DNA of 32,000 bases from Candidatus Saccharimonadota bacterium (GCA_965229705.1 OZ245922.1:60001-92000); one strand, 5' to 3'; shown: positions 1 through 32,000, counted from the first letter of the stretch. The notes: generated by a model from the sequence alone, not told the origin. A program made the numbers and translations.

Positions 1-22
1 CTTCTCGACAATCCTTGAGAAA

Positions 23-1096
23 CTATTGAATTGTATCAACTTCTTCAATCTTCAGTTGTCGTTTTTTAGTATCATCAGGAGCAATCATCACAATATCTTT
101 ATCAATAATATCGAGGCGTTTTTTGCCATCATTGTAGTGATTGACTGTTGTATTGAGAGCGTTTCCGAGTTTTTGGTACCCCAGCTCATATTTTTCGAGA
201 TCTTTTTGGAGTTTGAGAACATATTTTTGGATTTCTTTTGCTTGTTTTTCGATTTGTAGAGACTTCATTCACTGGATAACTGTCTGGAGATAGGCATAAA
301 AACCGCTTGGGGAGCAGATGATGACTTTTTTTGAAAAGCCATATTCTATGAGTTTTTGAGGAGCTATATCTCACAGTTTATTGATAAAAATATCATAATA
401 CATTCACTCTGCAGGAATGAGCATAAAAGCGAAATCTGTAGTGCCTTCATTGGGAAGAATATACTTTGCGACTTCATCAATTCGAGTATGTATATCTTTT
501 TTGAGAGCGTTGGAATAACTCTTGATCACAAAATCTTCTTCGGCTGAAACAAGTTTTTCATAGTTTTCTTGGGGAAACTTTGCGTCTATAGGGATAGTCA
601 TATTTCAGACAAAGAGTGCCGCATCAACGATACCTGTTGAAAGCTGATACTGTAGTAAATATTGACCCTCAGTAAAGACATTTTCCAGAAGTTCTTTGAG
701 GAAATATTCTCAGAGATTTCCTCGTCTTTTTGGATTCTTGAGAATACTCTCGAGTCACTCAAGGCGACTTCATATATCTTTGATATGCTTATTTGTTTCA
801 GTGATTTCTGTCAGTTTTTTGGTGATGTTTGCAATATTGGTATTGGATATATGAGCGACTTCTTGAGAGTTTTTTATCGTTTGAGACATATTCTGCGTGA
901 GAGACTTGGTACTGTCTGAGAGCTTTGTATCAAGAGTATGCGAGAGGTGTAGGAGCTGTTTTTGGAGGAGCTGGAGTTCTCAGGAGTTATTTTTTCATTG
1001 ATATTTTTTTGAAAGTAGCAGTATCACTCAAACACATACTCCTATAAGAAGTACAAAAGAGAGTGAGAGCAGGATAAAAAATATATCGAGGGACAT
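23..1096 (-). CDS. rmuC: DNA recombination protein RmuC (357 aa with TGA = Gly)
   Basis: Track fragments 23..268 and 404..601 share one frame and join through in-frame TGAs. N-terminal TM helix MSLDIFFILLSLSFVLLIGVCVGVILLL. Motif KNPKRRGNLGEYFLKELL, where the G of the G-E pair is the TGA at 710-712. Further RmuC-like stretches: IDAKFP, FMLIPAEG, VIICSPSGFYAYLQTV. ATG at 1096-1094, true stop at 25-23. Confidence 0.85.
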
Positions 1097-1192
1097 AGTC
1101 GTATTTAAGAGGATATTTTGTAAAAGTATATAATAACTTTGAAAAACTGCGAAAAATAATCCAGATTTTTGCACTCAAGGAAAAAGTGTGCT

Positions 1193-3724
1193 ATGTTTAC
1201 GAGGATACTCTCTAAATACCATATACATATGTACTTTTTACAGCAGATATACACGCAGTTTTGCTCTCATGTATTCTTAAGATTTCAGACTCCAGAAGAG
1301 GCGATGATGCAAGACAGGCAAGAATGAATCGATGATATCGATGAAGCACAAAAATATATAGAAGCGCTCCAAGCATCACAATCTATCGTATGAAAGCATG
1401 TACAAATCTTGTCCAACTTTCTCACAAAGGTCGAGGCGTGAGAGATAGCCTGACTCTCATCTGAAGATGCAGAGTTTTTACCACTCAAAGAAAAACTTGA
1501 TCGAAAGATAATAGAGCTCGAAAATCTCAAAGGAGATAGAACACTTCTCTCTCATGTGCAAGATAATGCTCTTGAGGATGTAGGTATTGAGGCGTATAAA
1601 GAAGTGATTGATACGAGTATTGAGAACAGAGAAAAGTGAGAATTTTTTTCGCGACTCGAAAGCGTTACGATTGAAAGTTTACAAGAAGGTGAAGCTAACA
1701 GTATTATTACAGAATTTGGAGAAGTATATATTTCTCAATGGCAAGCAGAGCTTGCTGAGCAAATAAGGTTCGAAACACCAGACGCAAAAACGCAGGGATT
1801 TATAGAAAAAATAGCGCAGATTCAGAGTATTTTTGAGATGGAGTCTTCTTCAAAAAATGGAGAAAGAAGTGGTGAGGTGATAGAGTTTTATAATAAGATA
1901 AAAGATATAGAAGAACCCCTCACTCTTGAAAGTGCAAAAGGTATAGTTGAGGAGTTTGGTTTCTGACTTATTCGATCATGGATAGATGAAAAACAGGAGT
2001 TTCTCCAATCTGATCCTCAATTTTCAAATCATATAGCATGACATATACAGCAGGCAAAAGAGATTTTGAGACTGGCTGACAATCGAGACTTTGAAGATAT
2101 GCAGGAGCTTGTCACGATGAAGAGAGAAGATTTTTTTACGCGTTATGATCACACTCAGAGACTCCGCTATGTGACTCGCGAGGCTATTGATCCAACAAGC
2201 CTAGAAGTTGATACTGAAATGGAGTTTCAGTTTCATTTTCTCTGAGAACTGAATACTGACCTAGAACGCCTCTCAGCAGGAGATGTCCTCCCAGATACGG
2301 TAGAGGCAGTAACAAAGGGGGATAAGACCTATACTCGTCGTGGACCTCTGGGAGACTTTGTTGAAGATACTTCAGATGGATCATTGTGAGCAAGACTTAC
2401 GCTCCTTGATGGAGAAACACTCACTATCAAAACACTGAGAACAGATGACGCACTTTCATCAATATATGCAGGCATAGATGAAACGCTACAAGAGAGTGGT
2501 CTAAACGGAGCAGAGCTCGATGTGGCTCGTCAGGCACTCAATACGTGACAAGATATTCCACCAGCAGAAGTGACGCAAGCTCTTGTAGAGTATGCCAGAT
2601 CATGAGGAAATATCGAAAAAGAGCTAAACAATATGTTTGATGTTTTTGGCGTGATTGCAGAAAGTTTGTGAGAAAATTCACTTGTAGGAAAACTTCTCAA
2701 AGGCTTTATTGATATGCTCTCAAGCTCCGATCTTTTGGCAGATGAGGGAGAATGATGACTTGGAACACATTCATTTGAATGATTTTGGAATTATGGTCCT
2801 GTCTGAGATCAACTTGCAAGTTTTTTGATCACACACAGACCAGTATATAATGGACAACCATATTACTGTGGACAAAATGTTTGAGAAGCGCTGAATCACT
2901 TTGGTATAGAAGGTCTGCCCCAGTCAGGAAGACATGGTCATAAGTGGGCAGATATCTGTAGATCAAGACCAAACCAGTTTCAAAAATGGGAGTGAAGAGC
3001 TGAAGATGCTCCTGCGTGAGCAGTGATCTCTTATCATAAAAACACATGATGAAGTCAAGAAAGGCAAGAGCATGGTCATGTGGAAATCGCTCTCGGAAAT
3101 GGGCAGTTTTATTTTGGGCAAATCAATAATCATCCGGGAGGAAGCAATACTTCACCACAACCATGAGAATATGAGATATATATTTCTATTGCGAAAAAGG
3201 TCGATGGGAGTGATAGAGACCTCTGATTTGCGGATGCAGAAGGGATAAATACGGATAGTTTACATCCTCATAGAAAAGCCATTGTTGATGCAGCACTGAC
3301 ATCATATAATCAGAGAGATATTTGTGATGCAGAGCACTGTACTGATTGGGTAGATAAGATATATGCTAGGGCTGTTTTAAATAGTGTACATAATAAGCCA
3401 CAAAAATTTAATAGTGTGAGCGAGGTTTCACCAACTGGTAGTGGTGACACCTGACTGCGTCCAGGAGATGAGGGTTATGCTGGAAACGATGTGATAAATA
3501 CACTCGAACCAGGTGATCATATCATGGTAGATCATGGACCAAACTATGGGCGATGAAGAACTCATAGTGCCATCATACTCGAAGCGCCGGTTGATGGTAT
3601 TGCTCGAGTTGTGAGCTATCCAAATCATGGACGTCCTCCACAGATAGAACGTTATGATCTTACATGACAAGGGAGATGAGGAGCAAGACCAGAAAAGATA
3701 CTCAGAGTACATTCTGCTGTGTAA
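1193..3724 (+). CDS. Large (843 aa) multidomain cell-wall hydrolase: long alpha-helical/acidic N-terminal region, CHAP-like amidase domain, second NlpC/P60-like Cys-His domain
   Basis: One frame stays open from ATG 1193 to TAA 3722-3724 once the many TGAs are read as Gly. The standard-code track lists no + ORF here at all. C-terminal part: YNGQPYYCGQNVGEALNHFG...HGHVEIALGNGQFYFGQ (Cys/His papain-like CHAP signature). This is followed by ICDAEHCTDWVDKIYARAV...GDHIMVDHG...THSAIILE (NlpC/P60-like). It is paralogous to the C-terminus of 7334..10714. No obvious signal peptide. Confidence 0.7.
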
Positions 3725-3737
3725 TATTGATACTGGT

Positions 3738-3846
3738 CTTAAGGAAACTCTGAAAAATAGAAAAATTCTAATCCTCTCTGGCTCTATGGAGACATCTCTC
3801 CTTTGAAAAAGGAGAGAAAAAAGGAGTTTCTCAGAGCTTCCTTAAA
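3738..3846. repeat. MITE/REP-like intergenic repeat, type A core (copy A1)
   Basis: Terminal inverted repeats cttaaggaaactctgaaaaa ... tttctcagagcttccttaa. They flank the core ctaatcctctctggctctatggagacatctctcctttgaaaaaggagagaaaaaaggag, which contains the hairpin ctctccttt-gaa-aaaggagag. Near-identical copies at 4666, 5460 and (inverted) 29334. Confidence 0.8.
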
Positions 3847-3871
3847 ATAAAATCTATAAATCAATTACGGT

Positions 3872-4660
3872 ATGTTAGAACATTTTAATACTTCATGATC
3901 TTGAGAAATCCCTTTTCATAGCAATGAAAAGGGTATTGTGGAAGATCAGTCTCTAGAGCTTGTAATGAGACCGGTCTCATCGAATTTCAGAGACTCCTTA
4001 ACACAGCTGCAAGAAGATATATGAGGTAGTAGCGATGTTTTGCCTGTAGATTTTTCAGAAAATATCAATACGAGAATGAGTCCTGAAGAGCTTCAAGAAC
4101 ATATAGAGAGGTACATAAATGAGCTTGATGTTGAGATACTCACAGACGAAGAGTTTCTCAGAGAACTCATAGCTTTATGTGGAAGACGATCGATATATGT
4201 TGAAGATATGCTCTTTATGATGTATAGTGAGTCCTACCTAGATCCTCAGGCGCAAAATAGTCAGTCATGAGCAGTATGACTCATACAATTTATGCCTTCA
4301 ACTCTCACGCGTCTTGCAAAATCTCTTGGTCATGGAACAATGACGCCGGAAAACATGAAAAATATGTCAGGGACACAGCAACTCGAATATGTAGAGGCAT
4401 TTTATGCAGGGTTTTGAGAACGAAATCTGGACTCTTTAGAGAAACTCCATCTTGCAGCTTTTTATCCTGTGGCTTTATGAAAGCCAGAAGATTTTGTACT
4501 CGGGAGTGAGAGCTCTAATCCTCGTCGTTCTCACATTATTGCAGAGCAAAATCCTGCTATTGCAGACGCTGCCGGAAGAGATGATGGACTGATAGATGTA
4601 CAGGGATTTTATCGTTATGTTCAAGGAAAGGTAGCTGAGACTGGTCTCAATATACGGTAA
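3872..4660 (+). CDS. Lytic transglycosylase, SLT-domain protein (start uncertain: ATG 3872, TTG 4040 or ATG 4073)
   Basis: Track ORF 4040..4270 continues through TGA to TAA 4658-4660. Catalytic-region signature: MYSESYLDPQAQNSQSGAVGLIQFMPSTLTRLAKSLG (E-S ... GL.QFMPsT of SLT/goose-lysozyme-like transglycosylases). The longest ORF starts at ATG 3872, but 3900-4003 contains a perfect hairpin and a repeat remnant, so a downstream start is plausible. Confidence 0.65.
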
Positions 4661-4665
4661 GATAG

Positions 4666-4793
4666 CTTTGGAGAAAAATCTCTCATCCTCTCTGGCTCTA
4701 TCGAGCTATCTCTCCTTTGAAAAAGGCATTTTCGCTTTCTCGAGACCGGTCTCTTTTACACGAGATTTTTCTATTTCTCAAAACTTCCTTAAA
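4666..4793. repeat. MITE/REP-like repeat, composite: truncated type A core fused to an inverted type B core
   Basis: Left part tcatcctctctggctctatcgagctatctctcctttgaaaaagg is a type A core. Right part cattttcgctttctcgagaccggtctcttttacacgag...tttctcaaaacttccttaaaa is a type B core with GAGACCGGTCTC at 4742-4753, in reverse orientation. The repeat overlaps the last codons of the tsaC-like gene. Confidence 0.7.
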
Positions 4794-5349
4794 ATCGTCT
4801 AACATAATCAACCTCGCAAGAGTCTCAGATAAAGCGAAAAACATCTGAGGCTTTGTTGTCTTCATCAAGATAGTATGATCCTAGGAGTTCTATCTGACCA
4901 TTTTTGAGATAGTATCAAAAATCTTCTTCTACCTCTTCGGGAGTATATATCTCTCACTGACGTGAAATATTTGCTGAAGTCATCCAAAGAGGACCATGAG
5001 TTTGTATCAGCATATCTTGCACATCATTGTGACTTACTCGAAAAGAGAGTTCTTCATAAATATCTTTATTGATTAGGTATTGTTCTTTTTCGTCTTGGTA
5101 ATTGAGGAAGAGTGATATATATGTTGACTGCGTTAATATGGTAAATGGTCGAGGATAGTTTCTGAGAAACTCTATCTGTTCCTGATTTAGAGTAGTATTT
5201 TCCTTGATCCAGTCAAAGCTTTCTACCAAGATTGCCATAGGTTTTTCGAGAGAGCGTTTCTTGATTTTGTAGATTTGCTCATAGCTATTTTTATCATGCA
5301 GTGGGCAGGCAATACCATAACAGGTATCTGTAGGAAGAATAAAAATCAT
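4789..5349 (-). CDS. tsaC: L-threonylcarbamoyladenylate synthase, YrdC/TsaC-family domain protein (186 aa)
   Basis: N-terminus MIFILPTDTCYGIACPL...KIKKRSLEKPMAILV...PLWMTSANISRQ matches the YrdC-fold motifs (PTDT.YG, K.R...KP, TSAN.S). The track stop at 4954 is a TGA. Read-through continues GEIYTPEEVEEDFGYYLKNGQIE... to TAA at 4791-4789. Confidence 0.75.
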
Positions 5350-5650: not shown

Positions 5651-5670
5651 ATCAAATAATACATATTGCT

Positions 5671-7245
5671 ATGTTGTGAACAACATATCTCTACATGCTT
5701 GCACTCTCCTCATATACTTTCTCCTTTGGAGAAGGTGCTGAATGAAGCGAAGAGACAGAACCTCAACCATCTATATCTGATCTTCTTCGAGAGTTCCGCG
5801 AACAAAATGAATATAATCCATGAAATACTCCAGCTCAGAGTGCTATTCCTGAAGGTTTTTATGAAGTAGAGGGATACGGAGATATGTTATTTCAGAGCTT
5901 TTTCGATTATTTGGAAGGTATAGAGTTAAAACCAGAAAATATGCATGAGGTAATAGAGACAGTGCAAGATAAGTATAGTATATCTCTTCTCCATCGAGTG
6001 ATACAGGAAAATACTGCTCAAAGGACAAAGGCTATAACGCTGATGATCCTGATGGATAAGAGAGGACTCTCAGAGGATGATACACAGAGGGGAAAAACAC
6101 TATCTTGGGAGGAGTTTTTAGATGTGTATCCTCAGAGTGAAAGGCTCGCCTTTCTCACTCGCCATGGGATGACAGATGACTCTTGCAAACTATGAGCACA
6201 GGGAGAATTTTATTTTTATTTTGCTTGAGTATATAACAGAAACTTGAGCGAAAACTTTGATGTATTTACAGTTATGCCAGAACATGTTCAGAGCTTTACT
6301 ATGGAATGAAACGAATATGTGCGAGATGCAGAGAGAAAATGATTTTATAGTCAAACAGGAGAAGAGGCTGATATTTCTCAGTGAAGCAAGTTTGAGATAT
6401 CGAGCTTTGTCTCAAACAAAGTTGCACAGTGACAGGATCAGTGAAATGAAGATCCTACTGTTCCACAGACACTTACCCTTGAACCTCTTTCTGCTGAAAC
6501 GCCTGAACCACAGACATTTTCTGCACCAGAAGTTCCTCTACAAATACCTGAAAATCAGGAAGATATCCCTGTACAGCATGTTGTTGCTCTCAGAGAGAGG
6601 AATAGGCTCTTATCCTGAGATATACACTCAGTTGTGAGCGCCTATAGAGAAAAATACCCAGGAACATCTGAAAGTGAAAATATCCTCTCTTCGGGAACGC
6701 TTGCTTTTTATGAGCAAGACTCTCAGTGGTCAAAGGCTCTTGCAGATATGCGAACAAGAGTTCCTGATATCGATACCAAGCCACTAGCGTTTGTAGGAGA
6801 CTTTGATAATGAGGAGTTACTTATCATTGCTCATGGTCAAGCGGTAGTAGTGAAATCTCTTATGTGAGCATCGAGACCTCCACATAATAGCTTTCGAACC
6901 TCTACGCAGATGGCAGTCAGTGATCAAAAGCATGGAGATACCAGCCTCGCATGATCGGCAACGGTTGTAGGTGTTGCATTTTATTTTGGAGATGAATACC
7001 ATGTTCACGGAGTAGATCAGGGAAGGATCAATATTAACGGAGAAACTCTTGGCTGCACTACGACGGAGGCAGATCTCTTGCGTGATATAGCTCTGAATCT
7101 TGTAGAGCAGGGCTACGCTCGGGAAGATACAAGATACGGAACTTATAGGAGAACGGGAAGAAAGAATACTCATGGATGGAAAAGTCTGACAGGAAATACC
7201 ACAAGATATCTAATAAATACATCTATACCACATTTATTGTTTTAG
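5671..7245 (+). CDS. Hypothetical protein, 524 aa (function unknown; sits inside the cell-wall hydrolase island)
   Basis: Track fragments 5884..6195 and 6634..6867 are in the same frame. I checked every codon from 5671 to 7245 and found only TGA interruptions. First ATG after the upstream TAA (5566-5568) is 5671; TAG stop at 7243-7245. Contains a Pro/Glu-rich linker (TLTLEPLSAETPEPQTFSAPEVPLQIPENQEDIP). I recognise no family motif. Confidence 0.55.
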
Positions 7246-7333
7246 TAAATATTTTTCTCTGACTATTTTTTGATTCAATACAGAGAATATGATAGTATAT
7301 TGTTATAAATATTATATTATAATATATAAAGCG

Positions 7334-10300
7334 ATGCGAAATATATTTTTGAGAAGCATATACCATTCTTTTGAGAGTTTTATGACTCTTTCATTTGAAG
7401 GAAATAATGATAGAGGAAACGATGCTCAAACGGATAATATTCCTACAGGATCTGATTCTCAAGATACTACTTTTGAGTGAGATCATCGTTCAGAAGCTCC
7501 TGGTGTACTTGCAGAATCAACTGCTCAAAGATGAGATTTGAGAGCAAGTTTAGTGAACCCATCTGAGTGATCATCTACTCCTACACTCTGAAATTCACAA
7601 ATATCAGAACAATCAATAAACTGGGATACGACAGATTTTAATGTGGATGATATGTTTGAGAGCTATGAAGAATTTGCTGATCTCAAGAAAGATATTATAA
7701 AAATGAGTGCAGACTTTCAAAACTATACGCCTGAAGACTTTCAGAGAGCTCAAGAAATTTTAGATCGTGGTTTGGATGAATTGCATGATTTTGCTCAGGT
7801 GTATAACCATGACTTTATTGAAGATCATAAAAATAGTAGTCAAGATAATGATCCAGATAGAAAATATTATAAAGCCATCGTTCTTATTGGTGCAAAGGAC
7901 GAAAGAGGTCTTCCTGCTGAGTTAGCTGAGAATTTACAGAATATGACGGCTAATGAGTTTACTGAACAATATAATCAAAATGACAGAATCTTTATACTTA
8001 ATGCAAACGGTCATAGAGCAGAAGACCTAGAGGTAGGAAGTGAACTTACTATGTATATGTATTTTAATAATGATTATAATGCAAATTTTGAAAATTTGAA
8101 TCTTGGAGACACACTTCCAGATATTGTAGAGGGTATTACTATTCATGATATATGAAATACAGAGTTTACGAGACAAGGTCTTATTTGAGATTTTTATAAT
8201 GTAGACGGTGTTATGGCAAGAGCTACAATGTGAGAAAAAGTCATTATCCTCAGACTTCGTTCTCCACAAAAAGTTCAAGAAATGTATGATGAGATTGACA
8301 AGCAGATAGCTGACCTCCTTGCTGATTATCCAGAATCTCGGCATGAGTATATGCAAGGGATTGTGCGACCTCTCCTTTTGAGAGGTGAAGAGCTGCCAAG
8401 CAAGAGGTTTTTGGCATTTCTCAGTCATGATATAGTGAGAGACTTTTTATGAGGAGAGGATGCTATGCAGAGGAGAATGGCAGAGATCATGGAAGTATAT
8501 AAAAATCAGTCTTTTGATAGAGAGACTGTAGCTAACACTTTTAAATGGATCTTTTCTGATATACAAAAAGAACAAATACAAGAGGCTCTCTGAACAGATG
8601 ATATGAGAATATTAGCTGATATCATTGTTGTATACCAAATGTCAGAGAGTATGACACAAGCTACTTGAGTCTTTTCAGTGAGAGATGTAATTACAAGACT
8701 TACAGAAAAAATGGGAGTTTCTGAAGATATTTTCAAGACAGACGAAGAGTTACTCCGTGAATATCCATATGATATTGGAGAAGCAATCATATATATTGAT
8801 TTTCACTACTCAGAAGATGAAAGAAAAGATTTGCAGAGAGTACTTGGTTTAAATACTTATGACGCGAGTGAAATTGCTCTCGCAGTTGCTCTTTGGCAAA
8901 TCAAAAATAGGGACAACCCAGAGTTTGAGGATATTGCTGTTGATGGAAGACCATGAAGCTTGGAACTTGAGGAGCTTGGTATTACTCGTGAACAAAATGT
9001 TTCATTTAACGAGCAGAAGGCAGCTACATATATATGAAAGCAAAATGTGCAAGAGATAAGAAGACTTTTTCGCGCTAAAGAGACAGATAGTCTTGAGTTC
9101 CTTGCTCTCACGGTTGCTCGTTGGCAGCAAGCAAATGGCGCTTATGTTGATGGAATGCCTGGACCTAATACACTTGGCTCGTTAAGAGAAAACTATCCAG
9201 AATCACTTTTCTCCTCAGATCTATATGCGAAGTATGAAGATATAAATGGTCTAAAAAATCCTTCGATAGAATATAAAGAATCTATCTGGTGGGAAAAAGA
9301 CCCCAGTGCTTACAAAAGTTATAATATTATCGAAGCTGCTAGTTATATTGATGATCTTTCTTCAGATAATATAGAAAAATTGATTACTCTTTTTGATATA
9401 TTAGGAGAAAATATTGGCAGTGAAGCTATTGCTTATTGGATTGCAAAAGCTCAAATAGCGTATAACTCAAATCATCATATAGAGGACTTAGAAGGAGCTC
9501 TAGAGGTTACTGGTATACCCTCAGAGGAAACGCTTCAGGCATTATTTGGAGCAGAGACTCTTGATGAGGTATTTGAAAATAATTCTCAGTGAGAAGCAAT
9601 AAGTCAAATAGAATATAGAAAAGAAGATTATTACAACGAACACCAAGCGAGGTCGTATCTTAAAATGCTTTATACTGACGATCAGATCGGGCTGTTACAG
9701 AATGCATTTTTTCCTTCTAATACTGAAGATAATGATTCTAGTGATTTAGAACAGATTAACAATCTTACATCGGTAATCGCTGATTTCCAATTGCGTATAG
9801 GTTTGATACCTGATGGAAAAATATGACCAGAGACTAGACCACTTGTAGCACAATATTATCCAATTGAAGAATCTCAGTTAGAACCAGTAGATCGAACTAC
9901 TATAGTAGGGAATACTACTTCATCACAAAACAATCTCCTTGAAGGTACATGAGAGCCTGAAATAAACTATGAAGTAGCTATTAATTATATGGAGAAATAT
10001 TTTACAGTAAAGGATTTACGAAAAATTCGTAGTATGCTATGAAATGGTTGGATGAGAAATAGATGAATCGTAAATGCCGTAGCAGAGTATCAAAGAAACA
10101 ATAATATACCCGTAGACGGACTCCTCCGAACAGAATACCTTTTAGCAGGATTACCAAAACCAAATACAAATCCACAAGAAATAGTACAAATACATCCAAA
10201 AGACTTAGATATACAAGAAACAACTCTTTGACAAGAAATAGCGATATCTATTAATTATCATGGTACAATACATAACGCTAATGAGTTTACTTGTGGGATA

Positions 10301-21849: not shown

Positions 21850-21927
21850 GGTGCTCGTAGTTCAGTTGGTTAGAATGCCAGATTGTGACTCTGGAGGTCG
21901 AGGGTTCAAGTCCCTTCGAGCACCCCA
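21850..21927 (+). tRNA. tRNA-His: tRNA-His (anticodon GTG) with G-1 and encoded CCA
   Basis: g-gtgctcg ta gttc agttggttaga at gccag attGTGac tctgg aggtc gaggg ttcaagt ccctt cgagcac c cca. The 7-bp acceptor stem pairs perfectly. The extra 5' G opposite discriminator C is the bacterial tRNA-His hallmark. T-loop ttcaagt. Confidence 0.9.
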
Positions 21928-23393: not shown

Positions 23394-23413
23394 AATAAAA
23401 ATATACCTAGTTA

Positions 23414-24199: not shown

Positions 24200-24208
24200 A
24201 CAGATTTT

Positions 24209-24733
24209 TTAAGGAAATAAAATTTTCATTTTTCTTTCTATGAGTTTTCTTGGTACTCATAATTCAGAGGATAACACAGATACATCATCAGTATCTTTTA
24301 GCTTTTCTCTGAGAAGCGTATCAGGGATAAGCATATCCATTGCAAACTGGTCAGCTCTTTGTTCTATAAAATCACAAAAGCTATTATATCATCTATTTGC
24401 TCGGAGTTTATCATCATGTACTATATGCCCTAGCTCGTGAGCAATAACATATCTCTTGTACTTTGGATAGCTGTTTTCTTTGACGAGTATAAAATCTCGA
24501 CCAAACCTTTTGCAACTGTATCCATAAACTCATTTTGTATGTATTTTTACTTCTTCGAGAACTATTCACATTTGTAAGACAATTTTTTCTATATCCACAA
24601 AATCTCAGTATCCATATTCTTTTAGTATTTCACATGCTTTGGTGTTCATTATTTTTAGAAATATTTTACTATGAAATCTGTTTCGCACGTCCCGCATTTC
24701 TCGAACATATCTATGATTCGGTGCAGATTTCAT
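24209..24733 (-). CDS. ImmA/IrrE-family zinc metallopeptidase (174 aa)
   Basis: KRYVIAHELGHIVHDD (HExxH) ... EQRADQFAMDMLIPDTLLREKL, which is typical of the COG2856/ImmA anti-repressor proteases. ATG at 24733-24731, TAA at 24211-24209. A 9-nt gap separates it from the SNase gene. Confidence 0.8.
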
Positions 24734-24790
24734 TTTTTTTGTTAAAATTACAGTATCTACTAGTTCTTCAAAAGGCTTGTATTATTTCAT

Positions 24791-24823
24791 AGTCAATATA
24801 AAAAATAAATAAATAATTTGCAA
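24791..24823 (-). promoter_or_regulatory. Promoter copy 1 (TTGCAA-N17-TATATT on the minus strand) driving ImmA-SNase-recombinase
   Basis: The 33-bp block agtcaatataaaaaatAaataaataatttgcaa is repeated at 25877-25909 with one mismatch. Read on the minus strand it is TTGCAA attatttatttattttt TATATT gact. Confidence 0.6.
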
Positions 24824-24865
24824 AAAAAATTTGACTTCATTTCTAAAATAATATATTATGTCACT

Positions 24866-24921
24866 ACATCACGACGAAAGGGGAACCGAACGGCTAGTTA
24901 CCTAAGGGCACCCCTTTTTTT
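24866..24921 (+). ncRNA. Candidate small RNA (about 55 nt) between the NYN and ImmA genes, antisense to the NYN 3' UTR
   Basis: Plus-strand TTGACT (24831-24836), a 17-nt spacer, then TATTAT (24854-24859). About 7 nt downstream the sequence runs acatcacgacgaaaGGGGaaccgaacggctagttacctaagggcaCCCCttttttt (7 T at 24915-24921). No ORF. Confidence 0.35.
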
Positions 24922-24926
24922 ATATT

Positions 24927-25433
24927 TTATACCTGTATATATTTATCATATATAATCTTATTTTTTATACTATCATGTGATAAATTTGATCAGTATTGAT
25001 AGCTTATTTTATTATAGAGAGATGAATATTTATTATTTGGAAATAAAATTTTTTCAAGTCTTCATTTTTTTCGTATCCATTCTACTGTTTTTATGTAGTC
25101 TCAATCTCATGATACGAGCACAACTTTATAAAAGCTGTCCTCTTGTATTCTCTTCATTATCTCAAATACTATATCAGTATCTACATTTCATTTCTTGTTT
25201 CATATTTGAGATTTTCGATGTTCTCTAAAAATTACTATGTATCAAGCCTCTTGTAAATCACTATATAAATCTTCATTTTGGTCTTGTACACATCAAAGGA
25301 AGTAAAAAGCTTTTTGAATTTTATACTTTTCTTGTAGATAGATTCTAAATTTGTATATATCTACCTTCCAACCCTCACTCTTTGTTCAGTAGTGAAGGTT
25401 TTGACCATCTATGAATGCATAATTACTACTCAT
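24927..25433 (-). CDS. NYN/LabA-like (PIN-fold) ribonuclease domain protein (168 aa)
   Basis: MSSNYAFIDGQNLHYG...KGNVDTDIVFEIM...FYKVVLVSGDGDYIKTVEWIRKKGRLEKILFPNNKYSSLY. These are the NYN signature acidic residues (iDg.N, vD.di, lvSGD.Df, G..v). The ATG at 25433 is 1 nt after the Xre TAG. TAA at 24929-24927. Confidence 0.7.
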
Positions 25434-25434
25434 C

Positions 25435-25836
25435 CTACCTATCCTTATATTTCAAAGTAACCATATCAAGAAGATTCTTTGCTTCTCTATATGCTTCTTC
25501 ATTTGGAAACTCCTGTTTTAGAGCAAAATCAAACTCTATTTCTTCGGAGTTAGAAATTGATTGTCAGGTTGTGTGTTCGTATTCTGCTTCGCGGGCATCA
25601 TTAAATATTTTTTCAAATTCTGATGAGGATATTCAGAGTGCTTTAGCAATACTTTTCCATCTTTCATTGGATGCTACCTGACGACCGTTAAACATATTTG
25701 TTAGATACGATTGAGAAACTCATACTATACCGCTCAAATTTTCGTATGTAATTGATTTTTCGGATCTTATATAGTTTAGTTTCTTTCAGAGATATTTATT
25801 AAAAAATCCCTTATCAAAGCTATCATCTACCGCCAT
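25435..25836 (-). CDS. Xre/cI-family HTH transcriptional repressor (133 aa)
   Basis: GKKLNYIRSEKSITYENLSGIVGVSQSYLTNMFNGRQVASNERWKSIAKALGIS is an HTH_3 pattern (lk.iR......t.e.La...gvs.s.ls..e.G......ia.aLgv). Acidic C-terminal tail. It is divergent from the rightward early genes. Confidence 0.8.
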
Positions 25837-25876
25837 TATAACTAAAAAACATATAAATATAAGCTGATTATATTAA

Positions 25877-25932
25877 AGTCAATATAAAAAATCAATAAAT
25901 AATTTGCAATAGTTAGTATTTTAACATATAAT
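25877..25932. promoter_or_regulatory. Back-to-back divergent promoters sharing one palindromic -35 hexamer (switch region)
   Basis: Minus strand: TTGCAA (25909-25904), N17, TATATT (25886-25881), towards the Xre gene. Plus strand: the same TTGCAA (25904-25909, its own reverse complement), N17, TATAAT (25927-25932), towards the early genes. The 33-bp block 25877-25909 duplicates 24791-24823. Confidence 0.55.
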
Positions 25933-26133
25933 ACTTGCGTAACTTAGAGATAAGTATTGCTCATTAACATACAAAACTACCAAATAGTAATATAAGTAGT
26001 AGCAATATTGGGATTGGCTGAATTGAAGCGATCAGTAATATGTTAGTGATAATATATATATTATCCATATTGCTTAATTTTTACTATAAATTATATGTAA
26101 TATACATATAAAACTTAAAACAAAACCTAAAAA

Positions 26134-26301
26134 ATGAGAACTTACAAAACAAGAAAAAATCCACTCACGCTACTCCCTGTAGAAAGAAATATGACAAAAC
26201 AAGAGGTAAAGCAGTGATTGATAGATTTTTTCAATGACCCGGATGAGATATTTGAACTAGCCCATCTTGTGGCAATAGTAAATATCAGAAATAGTTTCTA
26301 A
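26134..26301 (+). CDS. Small hypothetical early protein (55 aa)
   Basis: First ORF downstream of the rightward promoter: MRTYKTRKNPLTLLPVERNMTKQEVKQGLIDFFNDPDEIFELAHLVAIVNIRNSF. One TGA. Followed by a hairpin terminator. Confidence 0.3.
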
Positions 26302-26364
26302 CATTTATTGTAAAGAACTATGTGAGAGATACTAACGACAATTTTACATAACCCGTTTTTTACA

Positions 26365-26390
26365 TCAGGGTTTATTGCCCTGACTTTTTA
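26365..26390 (+). terminator. Hairpin plus T-tract (putative intrinsic terminator/attenuator)
   Basis: TCAGGG tttattg CCCTGA cttttta. Confidence 0.4.
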
Positions 26391-26407
26391 TTTCATTACG
26401 AAGGAAT

Positions 26408-26602
26408 ATGAAACAACACCTAAAAGATGTACTCGACCAAATAGAAGGTTGGAGTTATGACGACATCGACCAGCTTGTATATGAATTACAAGGTATACAG
26501 ATCGAAATGATGGGGGGTGAAAAATCTTTCCCAGAAATTGATTACAAGTTTGAAAATCCTCTTAAACAATTACAAAAACTAACATGAGTGACCACGAATT
26601 AG
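26408..26602 (+). CDS. Small acidic hypothetical protein (64 aa)
   Basis: MKQHLKDVLDQIEGWSYDDIDQLVYELQGIQIEMMGGEKSFPEIDYKFENPLKQLQKLTGVTTN. Codon-by-codon check from ATG 26408 to TAG 26600-26602. Confidence 0.35.
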
Positions 26603-26740
26603 AATGCTGATATGATGAATATCAATGATATTATTGAGAGCTTATACAGCCTCTTGAAATTCTTCATGCTGAAACAAGCACAGCTTGGGAAATACAAAAG
26701 CTCCTAGATATAGGAGCTAAGTAAAAGCCCCCCGACAGAG

Positions 26741-26780
26741 AAAGACTTTCCTGTGATTATAGGAAAGTCTTTTATTATTT
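26741..26780 (+). terminator. Strong rho-independent terminator
   Basis: AAAGACTTTCCT gtgattat AGGAAAGTCTTT tattatttc: a 12-bp perfect stem with an 8-nt loop and a T-rich tail. Confidence 0.75.
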
Positions 26781-26795
26781 CAATAAATTTTTTTT

Positions 26796-27371
26796 ATGAT
26801 ACAACAAAAACTACTAGAAATACAGAGAAGGAGTATTGCTCTAAAAAAAGATGCTGATAATCCTTTTTTCAAGAGTAAGTATATCACTCTCGATGCAATT
26901 ATATCTCAATATAATCCTATACTTACAGAGCTTCGTATTGTAGCTTATCATCATACAAAGGATAATAAACTTATTACTGTACTATATGATACTGAAAATA
27001 AGACACAGGTTGAATCTGAGTTCAATATATACAATACTGACCCGCAAAAACAAGGAAGTGAAGTTACATATTGAAAGAGATATAATTTATGACAACTTCT
27101 TAATATCCAAACTGATACTGACGATGACGGAAACCTTGCGAGTTCTTCGGGGAATACAAAGGAATATTATCCAAAATCTCAACAGAAGAATTGGCTGAAT
27201 TATGAATCTGCTCTTGAAATCATAAAAGCTGGAAACGATACTCCCGAATCTTTCTGAAAAATTGTAAAAGAAGATGGATATGACTTATCAAGCTATGCTA
27301 AGAAAGCTATAGCTGACTTTTTCAATACTTGAGAACTCAAGAAAAACTTATTTTTTAAACAAGCAAGATAA
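26796..27371 (+). CDS. ERF-family single-strand annealing recombinase (191 aa)
   Basis: KDADNPFFKSKYITLDAIISQYNPILTELRI...QKQGSEVTYGKRYNLGQLLNIQTDTDDDGN matches the ERF pattern (NPfF.SkYa.L..i, gS..TY.rRY.L, dDDdg). The track ORF 26796..27074 continues through TGAs to TAA 27369-27371. Confidence 0.7.
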
Positions 27372-27372
27372 T

Positions 27373-27786
27373 ATGAACGAAATATTAAAAGCAAAACACT
27401 TACAAGCTGTGCAATCCCTTGAGGAAGTAGTTGAGGGAGTTTTAAGCGGAGAGATTTCTCCTGTACAAGCATACTCAGTTATGAAGGACTTTAAAAAAAG
27501 TATGGATGATTCTTTGAAGTTTATTGAGACTCAAGTTATTTCTCAAATTGAAGCAGATCCAAATGAGTATCCTGAGTTCAGAATCTCTACTCGAAAGACA
27601 CTACAGTATAAAGATAATCCTTTGTATGCTGAAAAGCAAAAAGAACTCAAAGAAATAGAGTCTCAAATAAAAATTGCTACAGAAATGCACGAAAAGGGAG
27701 ATTCTTATGTAGATAGTGATGGAGTAATCATCGATCCTGTAGAGATAAAATTTACTCAGGTTCTTACATATACTCCTAAGAAGTAA
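27373..27786 (+). CDS. Hypothetical phage protein (137 aa), possibly Gp157-like by position next to ERF
   Basis: Intact ORF without TGA and with a true TAA stop. Helical, acidic. The assignment rests only on synteny with ERF, as in many siphoviruses. Confidence 0.4.
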   Translation: MNEILKAKHLQAVQSLEEVVEGVLSGEISPVQAYSVMKDFKKSMDDSLKFIETQVISQIEADPNEYPEFRISTRKTLQYKDNPLYAEKQKELKEIESQIKIATEMHEKGDSYVDSDGVIIDPVEIKFTQVLTYTPKK

Positions 27787-27885
27787 ATGAACCGAGTATG
27801 TGCCTGGTGCTGAAAAGTACTGGAAGAATGAGAGTGAGAAATATCTCATTGAATTTGTGAATCTTGTTTAGAGATTCATTTTTAG
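27787..27885 (+). CDS. 32-aa zinc-ribbon micro-protein
   Basis: MNRVCAWCGKVLEEGEGEISHGICESCLEIHF. It has CxxCG and HGICxxC knuckles. Four of the 32 codons are TGA, two of them supplying the knuckle glycines. Confidence 0.45.
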
Positions 27886-27888
27886 TTT

Positions 27889-27913
27889 AGGGGCTTTAAG
27901 CCCCTTTAATTTT
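27889..27913 (+). terminator. Hairpin terminator
   Basis: AGGGGCTT t AAGCCCCT ttaatttt. Confidence 0.55.
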
Positions 27914-28234
27914 ACACCTATGAAAAATAAAACAATCAAGTTCCAAGAAAGAACTTCTCGAAGAGGGTATCTCGTACCTGGTAGTAAAAAAATGTTTACT
28001 ACAAAACGAGATATGCAACTCAACACTATAGAGACCAATCTTATATTTCGTAATATTGATAAAAATGCATAGATGAAAAATTACAAAAATCATGTATTTG
28101 AACAAATTTACGGAGTGAAAAACTATAAAAGAAATCAAACAACAATTAAAAAAATCTTGTCATTACTGAACTTTCTTATCACTAGATACAGCAAGAATAG
28201 GTAGTGGTTTTTTAACTCCTACAGAAATGGATAT

Positions 28235-28648
28235 ATGATAGGAAACATACAAGAATGAATCCTGTTCTTGAAAAAACTTTCTCCCGATAATATCGTAAAA
28301 ATAACAGAGATTAGAGAGAATCGTTCACAGAGGCAAAATAGACTCTATCATCAATGGTTAAAAGATATACAGGTTTGTTTTGAAGAACAGGGTATATTTA
28401 TCACACACGATGAACTCCATGAGTGATTAAGAGATAAACTTATACCATGAAGTTATGAGATAAATCCTCTCACTTCAAGAACAATACATAAGAAAAAATC
28501 TACGACACAGCTCAATAAAAAGGAATTTTCAAAATACATACACGACTGCGAAAAATATCTCATAGACAGGTTTGAAATAAGCTATCCGCTTCCTGTAGAT
28601 ATTTTTTACACAAAAAAAAGAACCACCGACCAAAGTAATTCTTTTTAA
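28235..28648 (+). CDS. NinB/Orf-like recombination mediator (putative), 137 aa
   Basis: ENRSQRQNRLYHQWLKDIQVCFEEQGIFITHDELHEGLRDKLIPGSYE resembles the NinB pattern (R(S/T)..QN...(H/W)..L.DI......G.......W/H). ATG 28235, TAA 28646-28648. Confidence 0.4.
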
Positions 28649-28809
28649 ATGCCCTCAATGGGCTTTTATTCTCTGCCTTGTATAAATAATTTATACCAAA
28701 ACATATATTCATTATATGTATATATTTATATAAAGCAAATTTATTTTATATTGTAAAATATACTATTATGAAAAATACTTGATATATAGAAAATTTGAGT
28801 CAAGAATAA

Positions 28810-29085
28810 ATGATACTAGAACTGCTAGTGAAACAAAAATATGTCACACTTCCTGAGATACGGAGACTGTGAATTGCTTGTCATACTGCGAGGATTACAG
28901 GACTAAGGAAAAAGTGACATATTATTTTTAATACTGTGAAATATAAGAGGAAACTGTCTGGAAGAATGGTGGCGCATTCGGTGTATTTTTATTGAGGAAA
29001 CAGATTTGAGAAGAGACCTCTTTATAAGAAAGAGCAGTGATTTTTTGAGAAAATCAAAAATAAAATATTTGGTAAAAAACAATAA
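28810..29085 (+). CDS. Winged-helix/HTH DNA-binding protein (91 aa)
   Basis: KYVTLPEIRRLGIACHTARITGLRKKGHIIFNTV follows the ...G....ARI.eLRkkG..I.t pattern of small phage HTH proteins. Basic C-terminus. Confidence 0.4.
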
Positions 29086-29330
29086 TGGATAACACAAAAA
29101 TACTTCAATGGCTTAATAACGAAACAAACTGGCGAAGATTTACAGGAATATGTTTGAGTAGTCATGTTATAAAAAGGTTGAGAGAATATAAGTCTCGAGG
29201 AATGCTACCTTGAAAAACGATATTGTATAAGTTTATACAGGATTATAAGTTGTTAGAGAATGATACAAGAGATGATAGAGAAATTGCTATAGATTTATTA
29301 GCTTTAGTTGATAAAGATTTTACTTCATAG
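29085..29330 (+). CDS. Hypothetical protein (81 aa)
   Basis: The start overlaps the previous stop (TAATG). MDNTKILQWLNNETNWRRFTGICLSSHVIKRLREYKSRGMLPGKTILYKFI.... TAG at 29328-29330. Confidence 0.35.
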
Positions 29331-29333
29331 ATT

Positions 29334-29441
29334 CTTAAGGAAACTCTGAGAAACTCCTTCTTTCTCTATTTTTCCAAAGGAGAGATGGCTCGATAGAGCC
29401 AAAGAGGATTAGAAATTTTTTGTTTTTCATAGATTCCTTAA
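29334..29441. repeat. MITE/REP-like repeat, type A core, inverted orientation, located inside the mobile element
   Basis: cttaaggaaactctgagaaa ctccttctttctctatttttccaaaggagagatggctcgatagagccaaagaggattagaaatttttt ...tcatagattccttaa. This is the reverse complement of the A1/A3 core. Confidence 0.8.
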
Positions 29442-29485
29442 AAAAATAAGGAAAGCACAACTATATTTAATAATAAATCCTATCA

Positions 29486-30259
29486 ATGAAGTACAACGGA
29501 AATATAAACTATATCAAGTGCCTAGAATTTGGATTAAATCTGAGTCAATGAGCTGTAATGGATTTGATGACTCATTTATCGACTTGGGCTGAATGAAAAG
29601 ATATAGATGGGGAGATATACTACTATCTTTCAACACAAAAAATGACACAAGAACTACCACTTATTTCTGAGAATAAAAATACTTTTTTGAAGATATTGAA
29701 AAACCTCAAAGAAAAGGAACTCATTGAGCATAAAATATATTGGAATAAATGATATTATAAACTCTCAGAAAAGTGAAAAACTTTTGTATCAAAAATATTC
29801 TCTGCAGATATTCAAGGTGTGGAAAAAAATCCATACAAGTGTGGAAAAAAATCCACACTAGGTGTGGAAAATTTTCCACACAATAATAATACTAGTAATA
29901 ATAACACTAATATAAATAATAACTCTAAAGAGTTATTACAGCAAAATGCTGAATCTGAAAAAAATTTTTGAGATGAGAATATAAATATGCTTTTGTCATT
30001 TTTGTATCAGACGATTGGTATAGACCAGTTTAAAGAATCACAAAAACTTGAGAGAATGTATGCTCGGCATCTTATAAATTGGATCAAGAAACATGGAAAA
30101 GAACAGTTTGTGTCTCGCGCTGGCCAGATTTTGTCTGATGATTTCAAATCCAAGAACTGTAACAGCATAAAATATTTTTATAACGAGCTGAAAAGTTTTA
30201 TTCATACTCCAGGAATTACGAAAAAACCACGAAACAATAACAATGTAACTTTTTGATAA
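29486..30259 (+). CDS. Putative replication initiator / replisome organiser (257 aa) carrying its own origin
   Basis: The N-terminal winged-helix-like region (YIKCLEFGLNLSQGAVMDLMTHLSTWAEGKDIDGEIYYYLSTQKMTQELPLISENKNTFLKILKNLKEKELIE) resembles phage replisome-organiser N-domains. The central low-complexity linker is encoded by the iterons plus an AT-rich tract. C-terminal helical domain. TGA then TAA at 30254-30259. Confidence 0.45.
29817..29881 (+). repeat. Three 20-bp iterons (putative ori) inside the initiator gene
   Basis: GTGTGGAAAAAAATCCATAC (29817-29836), GTGTGGAAAAAAATCCACAC (29839-29858) and GTGTGGAAAATTTTCCACAC (29862-29881, a perfect 20-bp palindrome). Spacing is 22-23 bp. Immediately followed by the AT-rich tract caataataatactagtaataataacactaatataaataataac. 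Confidence 0.7.
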
Positions 30260-30738
30260 TGAACACAGAACTAAAAAAACATACTCCGATGATGGTAGTA
30301 GAAGTTGCTTTTTGATCAGAAAAAGAGTTTTTGTACTGGGAATGAACAAAAGAGCAGTTTCGCGAAAAACTCCAATCAACCTATATAAATTTTCCTTTGT
30401 ATTCCAATAGAGATGTTCTGCGTCAGAAAATAAAAGATTACTGGGTATTGGACTCAAAAGATGAGATATCTCTAGAGATGAGACTCTCGAGTCTGACTAT
30501 GACGCAAAAGACACAGGTCAAAGAATACATCTCACGAATGCAAAAGAATATTGGGAGATATCCCACACAGAAAGAAATAGAATCAATGATACAAAAGGCT
30601 CTATGAATCACTCAAGAGGAAGAACACCGCAAAGATTTTAGTAGTCTTGAGAGATTTAAAACGAGTCTTGTTATCAAAAGACAGAGGATAGCGAAAATCA
30701 TTACTTGAACCTTTCTTTGATTTCGAAGAGTATGATAG
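30259..30738 (+). CDS. Hypothetical protein (159 aa)
   Basis: ATG overlaps the initiator stop (TAATG). It incorporates track ORF 30397..30606. TAG at 30736-30738. No motif recognised. Confidence 0.4.
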
Positions 30739-30793
30739 CAATCAGCCCTTTGAGAGGTAACAAATGCATAGTATTTTCTAAAAATAAGTCACT

Positions 30794-31225
30794 ATGAAAA
30801 AAGAAGAATACATAGAGGGAGACATTCTTGATTGGCTGAAAATGCACTGAGTGGAGTGTTATAAGAACGACATCAAAGGTTACTACAACGAAAAGAAGTG
30901 ATACTACCAAAAAAATAAAAGTAATTATATCCGAAGATGAATATCAGATATAACTGCAATTATTGAGGGGAGATATATCGCGATAGAAGTAAAAAAACCA
31001 AGTGAGATGAAGTTTTTTGATAAATCTCTCCAGGAACTAAAAAAAAATCTCGAAGAGGCATATACTCGAAATATCTCTGAGAGTACCATTAAAAAATATA
31101 TCCACGCTGTGGAGCAAAGAGGCTTTCTTGATGATATTATAGCAAGCGGTGGAATCTGATTTTTTACTCAGTCTATAAAACAAACTCAAGAAAGACTTGA
31201 GGAAAATTGATATATTATTTCTTAA
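30794..31225 (+). CDS. VRR-NUC / PD-(D/E)xK nuclease (143 aa)
   Basis: RRGISDITAIIEGRYIAIEVKKPSE follows the G.(P/S)D...... ....(I/V)E(V/L)K core of VRR-NUC, followed by ...QRGFLDDIIASGGIGFF. Confidence 0.5.
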
Positions 31226-31238
31226 TTTTAAAAAAATT

Positions 31239-31493
31239 ATGCAAAACACGAAAAAAATACTAATAAGTGCATGAATTGTACTTATTTTGATAATCACTAA
31301 CGTGATTACACTGTATGCTATCAGTCCAAGTGAAATAGAAAAGAGTAAAAAAATAAGATTACTCAATCGGGATACGATAGAAAATCTCGAAAAAATGATA
31401 ACTGCATTTCAGGAACAAGTACAAGAACTTGAACAAGAAAATGCTAGTCGGAGGGAATTTGAGTGTAGTATCAATCCCGAATGTGCAAAATAA
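31239..31493 (+). CDS. Small type-II membrane protein with coiled coil (84 aa), holin/spanin-like by context
   Basis: MQNTKKILISAGIVLILIITNVITLYAI is a single TM segment. It is followed by ENLEKMITAFQEQVQELEQENASRREFEC. Extends track ORF 31287..31493 upstream through a TGA. Confidence 0.45.
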
Positions 31494-31537
31494 AAGCTCC
31501 GAAATCTGAGCGTAAACTAAGACAATCGGATCTGGAC

Positions 31538-31834
31538 ATGGATAAACTAGCTTATGCAGTAGCAATGGCAGAGACAAAGGATTGTACTCTTTGATATGGA
31601 AAGACTCATAATAACTGTTTTTGAATCAAACATTGAAATACCGTTCCTTGTCCTGGAGTAGCAAAGTTATCTATGTGTAGATTTGAATCAAAAGAAGCCT
31701 CGTATGAGGCTTTTAAAATTATTTGGGGTACTTGGTACAAAGATTATCCAAACTACACTCTTGCTCATAAATGGACTTGATGAGACAGGGTCTGAAACTG
31801 GATGAATACGGTAAATTATTTTTATAATTTTTAA
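31538..31834 (+). CDS. Putative cell-wall hydrolase with glucosaminidase (FlgJ/LytD-like) motif (98 aa; start may be further upstream)
   Basis: AYAVAMAETKDCTLGYGKTHNNCFGIKHGN resembles A.a.lE(S/T)g.g.s.....NN.FGIK of mannosyl-glycoprotein endo-beta-N-acetylglucosaminidase domains. Six TGAs. TAA at 31832-31834. Confidence 0.4.
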
Positions 31835-31838
31835 GTTT

Positions 31839-32000
31839 ATGAAAACAATAAAAATTGCTTTTGATGTAGACGGAACTCTGATAAGCAATGAGTTTTGAGA
31901 TAATGATATAATACCAAATAAGCGTATTGTAGAAATGTTGAAGACTTTTTACAGCTTCAAAAATGTGAAAATATATGTTTGGAGCGGTAGAGGGGAAAAG
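31839..32000 (+). CDS. HAD-superfamily hydrolase, 5' partial (runs off the window)
   Basis: MKTIKIAFDVDGTLISNEFGDNDIIPNKRIVEMLKTFYSFKNVKIYVWSGRGEK contains HAD motif I, (F)DxDGTL. Confidence 0.5.

Follow-up and report, generated by a model that had tools for sequence, protein, structure and literature searches.

Evidence for glycine at UGA (genetic code 25) in a 32-kb Gracilibacteria locus and in the prophage beside its tRNA-His

Translation with table 11 shreds every gene in the window, by which we mean the whole 32,000-nucleotide stretch of DNA analysed here, and translation with table 4 places tryptophan for glycine, including in the Walker A motif of RecG and the SAM-binding motif of RsmG. 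The question that the locus raises is, then, in which code it is written. The reading that we regard as almost certainly correct is genetic code 25, with UGA as glycine, UAA and UAG as the only stops, UGG as tryptophan, and CGA and CGG as arginine, in a host from the Gracilibacteria (BD1-5); all downstream interpretation of the window hinges on table 25.

In-frame TGA codons and gene ends

Across the window (1..32000, with TGA as glycine and only TAA and TAG as stops), we counted 25 genes with 8,728 codons, which contain 217 in-frame TGA codons (2.5% of codons) and 0 in-frame TAA or TAG, and all 25 of which end at TAA or TAG. Given that TGA accounts for only 46% of off-frame stop triplets, the probability that chance alone would make every one of the 217 in-frame stops a TGA is about 3e-74. 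Re-calling of genes with TGA as a sense codon, as suggested in the initial annotation, increased the longest ORF from 242 aa under table 11 to 1,165 codons and produced a non-overlapping ORF set that spans 94% of the window, whereas reading through TAA or TAG instead gave ORF maxima of only 250-270 aa, with no such gain. The description of genes split at TGA only agrees with the counts above, and RecG and LepA each fall into about 5 same-frame pieces in the table-11 ORF list, but the accompanying figure of 2-6 pieces is too low because the 843-aa gene alone contains 27 TGA codons. Among the long proteins that had been singled out, those of 843 aa and 949 aa are as described, whereas the one given as 1126 aa is the second-ATG version of a gene whose first ATG gives 1,141 codons.

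The host genes start with an RmuC family gene (23..1228, minus strand, 11 TGA; Pfam PF02646, E = 3e-44), next to which the 843-aa protein (1193..3724, plus strand) is encoded. This protein has no Pfam match and is a paralogue of the 524-aa protein (5671..7245, plus strand, 13 TGA) and of the 1141-aa protein (7289..10714, plus strand, 24 TGA), the latter containing PG_binding_1 repeats (Pfam PF01471, E = 1.2e-12) and, at its C-terminus, a weak hint of CHAP (E = 0.029). A protein with an SLT lytic-transglycosylase domain (3872..4660, plus strand, 7 TGA; Pfam PF01464, E = 1.9e-5) and a member of the Sua5/YrdC (TsaC) family (4789..5349, minus strand, 3 TGA; Pfam PF01300, E = 9.5e-25, and solved-structure alignment) are encoded between the first two paralogues. 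Further along lie the genes for the 16S rRNA methyltransferase RsmG (GidB; 10741..11466, minus strand, 8 TGA; PF02527, E = 5e-36), the helicase RecG (11551..13557, plus strand, 5 TGA; 1gm5, E = 1e-143), the 949-aa protein with lamin-tail domains and internal repeats (14916..17765, plus strand, 22 TGA; Pfam PF00932, E = 4e-22) and LepA (EF4; 17826..19829, plus strand, 9 TGA; 2ywe, E = 9e-179). An NADPH-dependent FMN reductase (20008..20526, plus strand, 3 TGA; Pfam PF03358), with one TGA column that is S/T/G/A in solved-structure references, and an MgtC family membrane protein (21033..21710, minus strand, 8 TGA; Pfam PF02308, E = 4e-31), for which the solved-structure search gave nothing usable, follow LepA. 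The five codons quoted in the initial annotation are all TGA in the frame and context claimed, namely RLLE[TGA]DVGTGKT at 12415-12417 and VVEV[TGA]VDIPNA at 13216-13218 in RecG, SAKT[TGA]ENV at 18315-18317 in LepA and, on the minus strand, ADL[TGA]TGGGFPG at 11217-11215 in RsmG and RGNL[TGA]EYF at 712-710 in RmuC.

Gene ends were set by TAA or TAG, and a UGA that acts as a stop shortly before one of these triplets would escape notice, as it might if UGA were context-dependent, mostly read as glycine but terminating translation at some gene ends. We consider this very unlikely: in solved-structure alignments, the TAA or TAG that closes LepA, RecG and RsmG coincides exactly with the ends of their homologues, the genes are tightly packed (94% coverage), and we saw no homologue that terminates at a TGA of the window.

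The residue aligned to TGA

The 120 best matches from the RecG homologue search were without exception close relatives within the window's own recoded lineage, which are not neutral references, and we therefore used LepA instead, with a reference set of 70 homologue loci from a genome scan, all of which lack in-frame TGA. Comparison of the LepA of the window to these homologues shows that 6 of the 7 alignable TGA columns have a glycine majority (70/70, 70/70, 70/70, 70/70, 66/70 and 54/70). The TGA at residue 153 falls in a column that is variable in the references. The summed log-odds are +18.4 bits for glycine and −27.3 bits for tryptophan, and the glycine score per TGA column (2.63 bits) is close to that of the window's own GGN codons (2.82 bits). 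When LepA from all recoded genomes, including the window, was considered, 89 of the 113 alignable TGA instances were in glycine-majority columns, and the reference composition of the TGA columns was 74.6% glycine vs. 6.8% in the background. In the codon-to-aligned-residue table, TGA resembles GGN, with a glycine fraction of 0.45-0.59 and a tryptophan fraction of at most 0.007, compared to a tryptophan fraction of 0.16-0.47 for TGG.

Solved structures point to the same residue. TGA occupies the Walker A glycine (12415-12417) and the EVGVDIP glycine (13216-13218) of RecG, both of which are G in 3/3 references, four glycines of LepA, each of which is G in all three structures, and the motif I glycine of RsmG (11217-11215), a column that is G in 4/4 references. 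Two other TGA columns of RsmG are non-glycine in the references (E/E/E and E/E/R/R), and the TGA in the TY[TGA]KRY motif of Erf corresponds to alanine in 7/7 references; these columns and LepA residue 153 are compatible with ordinary substitution to glycine but do not prove it. Taken together, the LepA columns and log-odds, the codon table, and the invariant glycines of RecG and RsmG bear out the assignment of TGA to glycine in the initial annotation. Retention of TGG as tryptophan, which was also claimed there, agrees with the codon table and with the tryptophan of the RecG WFN motif, which is encoded by TGG. These are better evidence than the WQQANG and WIAKAQ segments originally cited, which are not conserved tryptophan positions.

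Code 25 might be accompanied by a second change, the reassignment of CGA and/or CGG to tryptophan, which Codetta predicts for Absconditabacteria, the sister lineage, and for some Gracilibacteria (PMC8629427). The content of TGG-encoded tryptophan in the host part of the window, which is rather low (0.56%), would fit this reading. For CGA, however, it is already contradicted by conserved arginine positions: CGA is common (67 codons, 77 per 10,000), aligns with R in 69/70 references at LepA residue 7, and encodes both arginines of the RecG motif QFRG-R-VG-R-G. CGG at LepA residue 88, the sole informative CGG column, aligns with R in 70/70 references. Since CGA and CGG align with arginine, the extra change of the Absconditabacteria type appears to be absent, and a tryptophan assignment of either codon is highly improbable.

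The Mycoplasma-type code 4, under which UGA is tryptophan, has in its favour that ORF lengths by themselves are indistinguishable from those under code 25, and that the translations of the window's RecG and integrase in a public collection have W at all TGA. The alignments nevertheless already refute it, and we rate it as extremely unlikely. Apart from the low tryptophan fraction at TGA and the LepA log-odds of the window, the tryptophan log-odds at the LepA TGA of five relatives (L001-L005) are −351 bits, and tryptophan would replace invariant glycines of the Walker A and SAM-binding motifs. Code 4 would also push tryptophan to 2.8% in the host part and 4.1% in the prophage and leave glycine at 4.4% and 2.5%, respectively, whereas with TGA as glycine these glycine frequencies become 6.6% and 5.5%. 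Retention of the standard code, with pseudogenes, sequencing errors, rare selenocysteine or programmed read-through accounting for the fragmentation of every gene under table 11, has a negligible probability given that no stop triplet other than TGA interrupts the genes (217 to 0), that all genes are affected, even those that are essential and highly conserved, that frames are kept throughout and independent relatives show the same pattern, and that TGA is far too dense for selenocysteine and aligns with glycine, not cysteine.

Host lineage, decoding of UGA and the prophage arm

The initial annotation placed the genome among the SR1/Absconditabacteria or Gracilibacteria lineages, and the closest relatives agree. 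The closest LepA match in the genome scan is the Candidatus Gracilibacteria MAG GFS_3055 (79% identity), and the closest RecG relatives, among the 120 best matches, are MAGs labelled Candidatus Gracilibacteria (81-82% identity); the matches in this set with a named source are all labelled Candidatus Gracilibacteria, and the others have no organism given. The closest relatives share gene order with the window and contain many in-frame TGA, that is, the same recoding, and the gene order from LepA to tRNA-His is also found in L001 and L002. Judged from these best matches rather than from a formal phylogeny, the host belongs to the Gracilibacteria/Absconditabacteria clade (GTDB class JAEDAM01) and, within it, very probably to the Gracilibacteria (BD1-5) branch of Patescibacteria/CPR; it uses NCBI translation table 25.

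In the public protein collection, the RecG and integrase of the window are stored with tryptophan at every TGA, as under code 4, and most relatives of these two proteins look likewise mistranslated. Such entries can bias the results of homology searches in this lineage, and likewise its family profiles and structure predictions.

The sole tRNA gene in the window encodes tRNA-His (GUG; 21851..21927, plus strand; ARAGORN and Rfam), and the Rfam search of the window identified tRNA only. ARAGORN found no tRNA with anticodon UCA in the window, nor was one found in 12 related loci (approximately 180 kb from recoded relatives), and the Pfam search of the 32-kb window gave no prfB. The tRNA expected with code 25 would combine the anticodon UCA with the glycine identity elements G1:C72, C2:G71, G3:C70 and U73. 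In the host, UGA would be read by such a dedicated tRNA-Gly, and release factor 2 has probably been lost, in which case there would be no competition at UGA; both steps follow the literature on the lineage, which leads one to expect tRNA-Gly(UCA) with code 25 and an RF2 gene in relatives that keep UGA as a stop (PMC8629427, PMC4032931, 10.64898/2026.05.24.727570). The outcome of decoding, glycine at UGA, is demonstrated by the placement of TGA in conserved proteins.

The prophage begins at tRNA-His, and its left arm (21870..32000), identified from Pfam and PHROGs matches, runs past the end of the window and contains 72 in-frame TGA by codon count. It encodes a large serine recombinase, SNase, an ImmA/IrrE protease, NYN, an XRE repressor, Erf and NinB; the solved-structure search with the NYN protein gave nothing usable. 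An integrase (phrog_95) that adjoins tRNA-His, ImmA/IrrE together with the XRE repressor, and Erf and NinB are features of a temperate phage. We found no att repeat and no structural gene within the window, beyond which (position 32000) the prophage extends. Downstream of tRNA-His, the sequence diverges from L001 and L002. The tRNA-His alignment was considered as a possible attachment junction and rejected: paired (compensatory) differences from L001 and L002 occur in both halves of the tRNA, which therefore does not mark a junction. For the prophage genes, there is less direct alignment evidence than for the host genes. Among the integrase homologues, W (from mistranslated TGA) alternates with G at the TGA columns of the window, and at five of these columns two homologues whose W and G content is ordinary both carry glycine (G/G).

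The prophage obeys the code 25 of its host and leans on TGA even more heavily, and its expression would be impossible in a host with the standard code. TGA makes up 56% of the glycine codons of the prophage and 34% of those in the neighbouring host genes (odds ratio 2.4, P = 1.4e-5). Selection could conceivably favour TGA loading in temperate elements whose hosts use code 25; if so, the loading would either fit an abundant tRNA-Gly(UCA) or serve as a genetic-code lock that confines the element to recoded hosts, but we consider such selection unlikely. A plainer account of the excess is weak constraint combined with the lower GC content of the island (29-33%, where the host part has 33-41%); in poorly conserved host genes (such as RmuC, RsmG, MgtC and a 121-aa ORF), TGA likewise makes up 50-71% of the glycine codons.

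Comparison with known recoded systems

The code itself is not new. Glycine at UGA in Gracilibacteria was established by 2013 and prophages with code 25 by 2023, so that the present assignment is a correct and needed annotation call, not a discovery. PMC8629427, PMC4032931 and 10.64898/2026.05.24.727570 deal with code 25 in Absconditabacteria and Gracilibacteria, with Campbell et al. 2013 and Rinke et al. 2013 (as cited in PMC8629427) and Hanke et al. 2014 (PMC4032931) as the references for table 25. Code-25 prophages of Gracilibacteria and Absconditabacteria are described in PMC10746230; like these, the prophage of the window is integrated, has an integrase, is dense in in-frame TGA, and would be expressible under code 25 only. 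It differs from them as a new example of which only the left arm, with no structural genes seen, lies in the window.

With code 4, found in Mycoplasmatales and insect endosymbionts, UGA is likewise translated and ORF statistics are the same as with code 25, but the residue is tryptophan there and glycine here. The Absconditabacteria (SR1) variant (PMC8629427) shares UGA = Gly with the window, whose CGA and CGG, in contrast, align with arginine, and CGA usage in the window (77 per 10,000) exceeds that reported for Absconditabacteria (<37 per 10,000; PMC8629427). The closed Gracilibacterium (BD1-5) genome 28_42_T64 (PMC6851277) uses the same code, and its RecG (P0040) is 72% identical to that of the window, but it is a different organism, the closest genome match of the window being MAG GFS_3055. 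From the decoding features in the window alone, we detected no difference from organisms with NCBI table 25 (the Candidate Division SR1 and Gracilibacteria code): the window shares with them UGA as glycine, UAA and UAG as stops and UGG as tryptophan, together with low GC content (35%), membership of the CPR, and a TGA share of approximately one third or more of glycine codons.

In-frame TGA codons and open reading frames

Under the standard bacterial code (table 11), the longest open reading frame in the window (GC 35%) is 242 aa, whereas reading TGA as sense yields frames of up to 1,165 codons, with a non-overlapping set spanning 94% of the window. When TAA or TAG was treated as sense as a control, the maxima were just 250-270 aa, which shows that the gain is TGA-specific. 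We delimited 25 genes, comprising 8,728 codons in total, in which in-frame TGA occurs 217 times and in-frame TAA or TAG never; each gene ends in TAA or TAG. Given that TGA accounts for 46% of the stop triplets in the other two frames of these genes, the probability that all 217 in-frame stops would be TGA is ~3 × 10−74. In the table-11 list, RecG and LepA are each split into ~5 same-frame pieces. The TGA-only interruptions described in the initial annotation are thus borne out, and the coordinates and peptide contexts of the five TGA codons it quoted were all confirmed.

Residues aligned to TGA

A LepA scan of species-representative genomes identified 80 loci, of which the 70 without in-frame TGA served as references, because references must not be translations of recoded genomes. 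Of the nine TGA codons in the window's LepA, four align to columns with G in 70/70 references, two to columns with G in 66/70 and 54/70, and one to a variable column in which E is foremost (28/70); the remaining two lie inside lineage-specific insertions. Over the seven alignable columns, the log-odds score is +18.4 bits for Gly, compared to -18.0 for the next-best residue and -27.3 for Trp, and the score per column, 2.63 bits, matches the 2.82 bits scored by GGN codons in the window itself. When all recoded genomes, including the window, were pooled, 89 of the 113 alignable LepA TGA instances fell in G-majority columns, and 74.6% of the reference residues at TGA columns were G vs. a background of 6.8%.

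We further used BLAST to match recoded loci to loci with TGA-free LepA (1.1 Mb), which were treated as standard-code on that ground, and tabulated the aligned residues per codon. TGA resembles GGN: G makes up a fraction of 0.45-0.59 of its aligned residues and W at most 0.007, whereas the W fraction of TGG is 0.16-0.47, in agreement with the earlier claim that Trp is still encoded by TGG. In alignments with solved structures, TGA encodes the RecG Walker A and EVGVDIP glycines (G in 3/3 references), four LepA glycines (G in 3/3), the RsmG motif I glycine (G in 4/4) and two more RsmG glycines. One TGA column of the FMN reductase holds S, T, G or A, all small residues; two RsmG TGA columns are E-rich, and one Erf column is Ala in every reference. 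These non-glycine columns in RsmG and Erf, none of which contains Trp, are compatible with ordinary substitution. If TGA is Gly, Gly content is 6.6% in host genes and 5.5% in phage-like genes, compared to 4.4% and 2.5% without TGA; code 4 (TGA as Trp) would give Trp contents of 2.8% and 4.1%. Both the initial observation and its interpretation as UGA = Gly are correct.

Gene content and prophage

Pfam and PHROGs searches identified, in order, RmuC, an SLT-domain protein (3872-4660), Sua5/YrdC, a 1141-aa protein with PG_binding_1 repeats (7289-10714), RsmG (10741-11466, minus strand), RecG (11551-13557), a 949-aa lamin-tail-domain (LTD) protein, LepA, FMN reductase and MgtC, followed by tRNA-His and a phage-like block. 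An 843-aa protein (1193-3724) follows RmuC, and a 524-aa protein (5671-7245) follows Sua5/YrdC. The three large proteins of 843, 524 and 1141 aa are paralogous and, together with the SLT-domain protein, form a cluster that may encode cell-wall-degrading enzymes; a C-terminal Cys/His domain is common to the 843-aa and 1141-aa proteins, and its match to CHAP is only weak (E = 0.029), short of the Pfam cut-off. The 524-aa and 1141-aa genes are missing between Sua5 and RsmG in L001, the locus of the closest relative. The 1.36 kb between RecG and the LTD gene (13558-14915) contains no convincing ORF under either code, and neither matches Rfam nor resembles the syntenic L001 region; its minus strand carries a terminator-like hairpin at 14346-14318. 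The window's RecG lacks the inserted DUF559 domain (~185 aa, very-short-patch-repair endonuclease-like) present in several close relatives (L001 2990-3545, and the protein entries P0008, P0012 and P0017).

The stretch from 21870 to the window end (32000), adjoining tRNA-His, belongs to a temperate phage, of which it forms the left arm; it codes for a large serine recombinase, SNase, NYN, Erf, NinB and an ImmA/IrrE protease with an XRE repressor. Its GC falls to 29-33%, and its 72 in-frame TGA make up 56% of Gly codons, vs. 34% in the host part (P = 1.4 × 10−5). The integrase ORF (21870-23393) and the tRNA-His gene lie on opposite strands and share ~58 bp at the 3' end of the former. Only 14 integrase homologues were present in the protein collection, of which 12 contain 2.9-5.2% W and 1-2% G, indicating code-4 translations of TGA-rich genes; in these, W and G alternate at the window's TGA columns, and the two of ordinary composition have G/G at five such columns. 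At 29815-29882, inside a 257-aa prophage gene (phrog_25527, function unassigned), a 22-bp unit, AGGTGTGGAAAAAAATCCACAC, occurs in three tandem copies, each an inverted repeat. The initiator gene O of phage lambda contains the replication-origin iterons, and the layout of the AGGTGTGGAAAAAAATCCACAC repeats, candidate iterons, resembles this arrangement.

Relatives, public translations and known codes

The top LepA match (79% identity) is a MAG labelled Candidatus Gracilibacteria, which shares the order Sua5-RsmG-RecG-LTD-LepA-tRNA-His with the window; the matches ranked 2-5 (66-69%) are heavily recoded too. Every named RecG relative at 64-82% identity, including the closed genome 28_42_T64 (72%), is Candidatus Gracilibacteria and none is labelled Absconditabacteria. 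Four more distant loci (L006, L007, L008 and L011; LepA identity 54-56%, GC about 40-42%), one of them labelled 'Peribacteria', have only 2-8 in-frame TGA in LepA, which nonetheless receive a Gly score (+19.6 bits). These results point to an unchanged code in which TGA is far less used where GC is higher, and to some doubtful taxon labels.

In the public protein collection, the window's integrase and most RecG and integrase relatives carry Trp at every TGA, as under code 4. The entry for the window's RecG (P0001) has W at every TGA and a false 149-residue N-terminal extension running antisense through RsmG. Among the best 120 RecG relatives, W exceeds 2% in 88, and the invariant Walker A glycine is W in 44 and G in 38. 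Such translations probably stem from a coding-density heuristic in which only table 4 is tried against table 11 (10.64898/2026.05.24.727570). As the initial annotation held, the code-25 call is essential to any further reading of the window.

UGA = Gly here is the well-documented code 25. Its basis would be tRNA-Gly(UCA) together with loss of RF2, as described for the lineage (PMC8629427; 10.64898/2026.05.24.727570); no tRNA(UCA) was found in the window or in the 12 related loci scanned, so this mechanism is taken from the literature. All Gracilibacteria and Absconditabacteria prophages have been reported to depend on code 25 (PMC10746230), with which the integrase evidence agrees. Shulgina and Eddy (PMC8629427) predicted Trp for CGA/CGG in Absconditabacteria, and for CGG in some members of the Gracilibacteria. 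The window, in which CGA is common (67 codons, and 9 of CGG), differs: CGA at LepA residue 7 aligns with R in 69/70 references, CGG at residue 88 with R in 70/70, and both arginines of the RecG motif QFRG-R-VG-R-G (13300-13311) are encoded by CGA. Such conserved arginines indicate that neither CGA nor, from its one informative column, CGG has changed to Trp in the window, which as judged from these alignments uses plain code 25, unlike the Absconditabacteria and some Gracilibacteria for which the Trp assignments were predicted.
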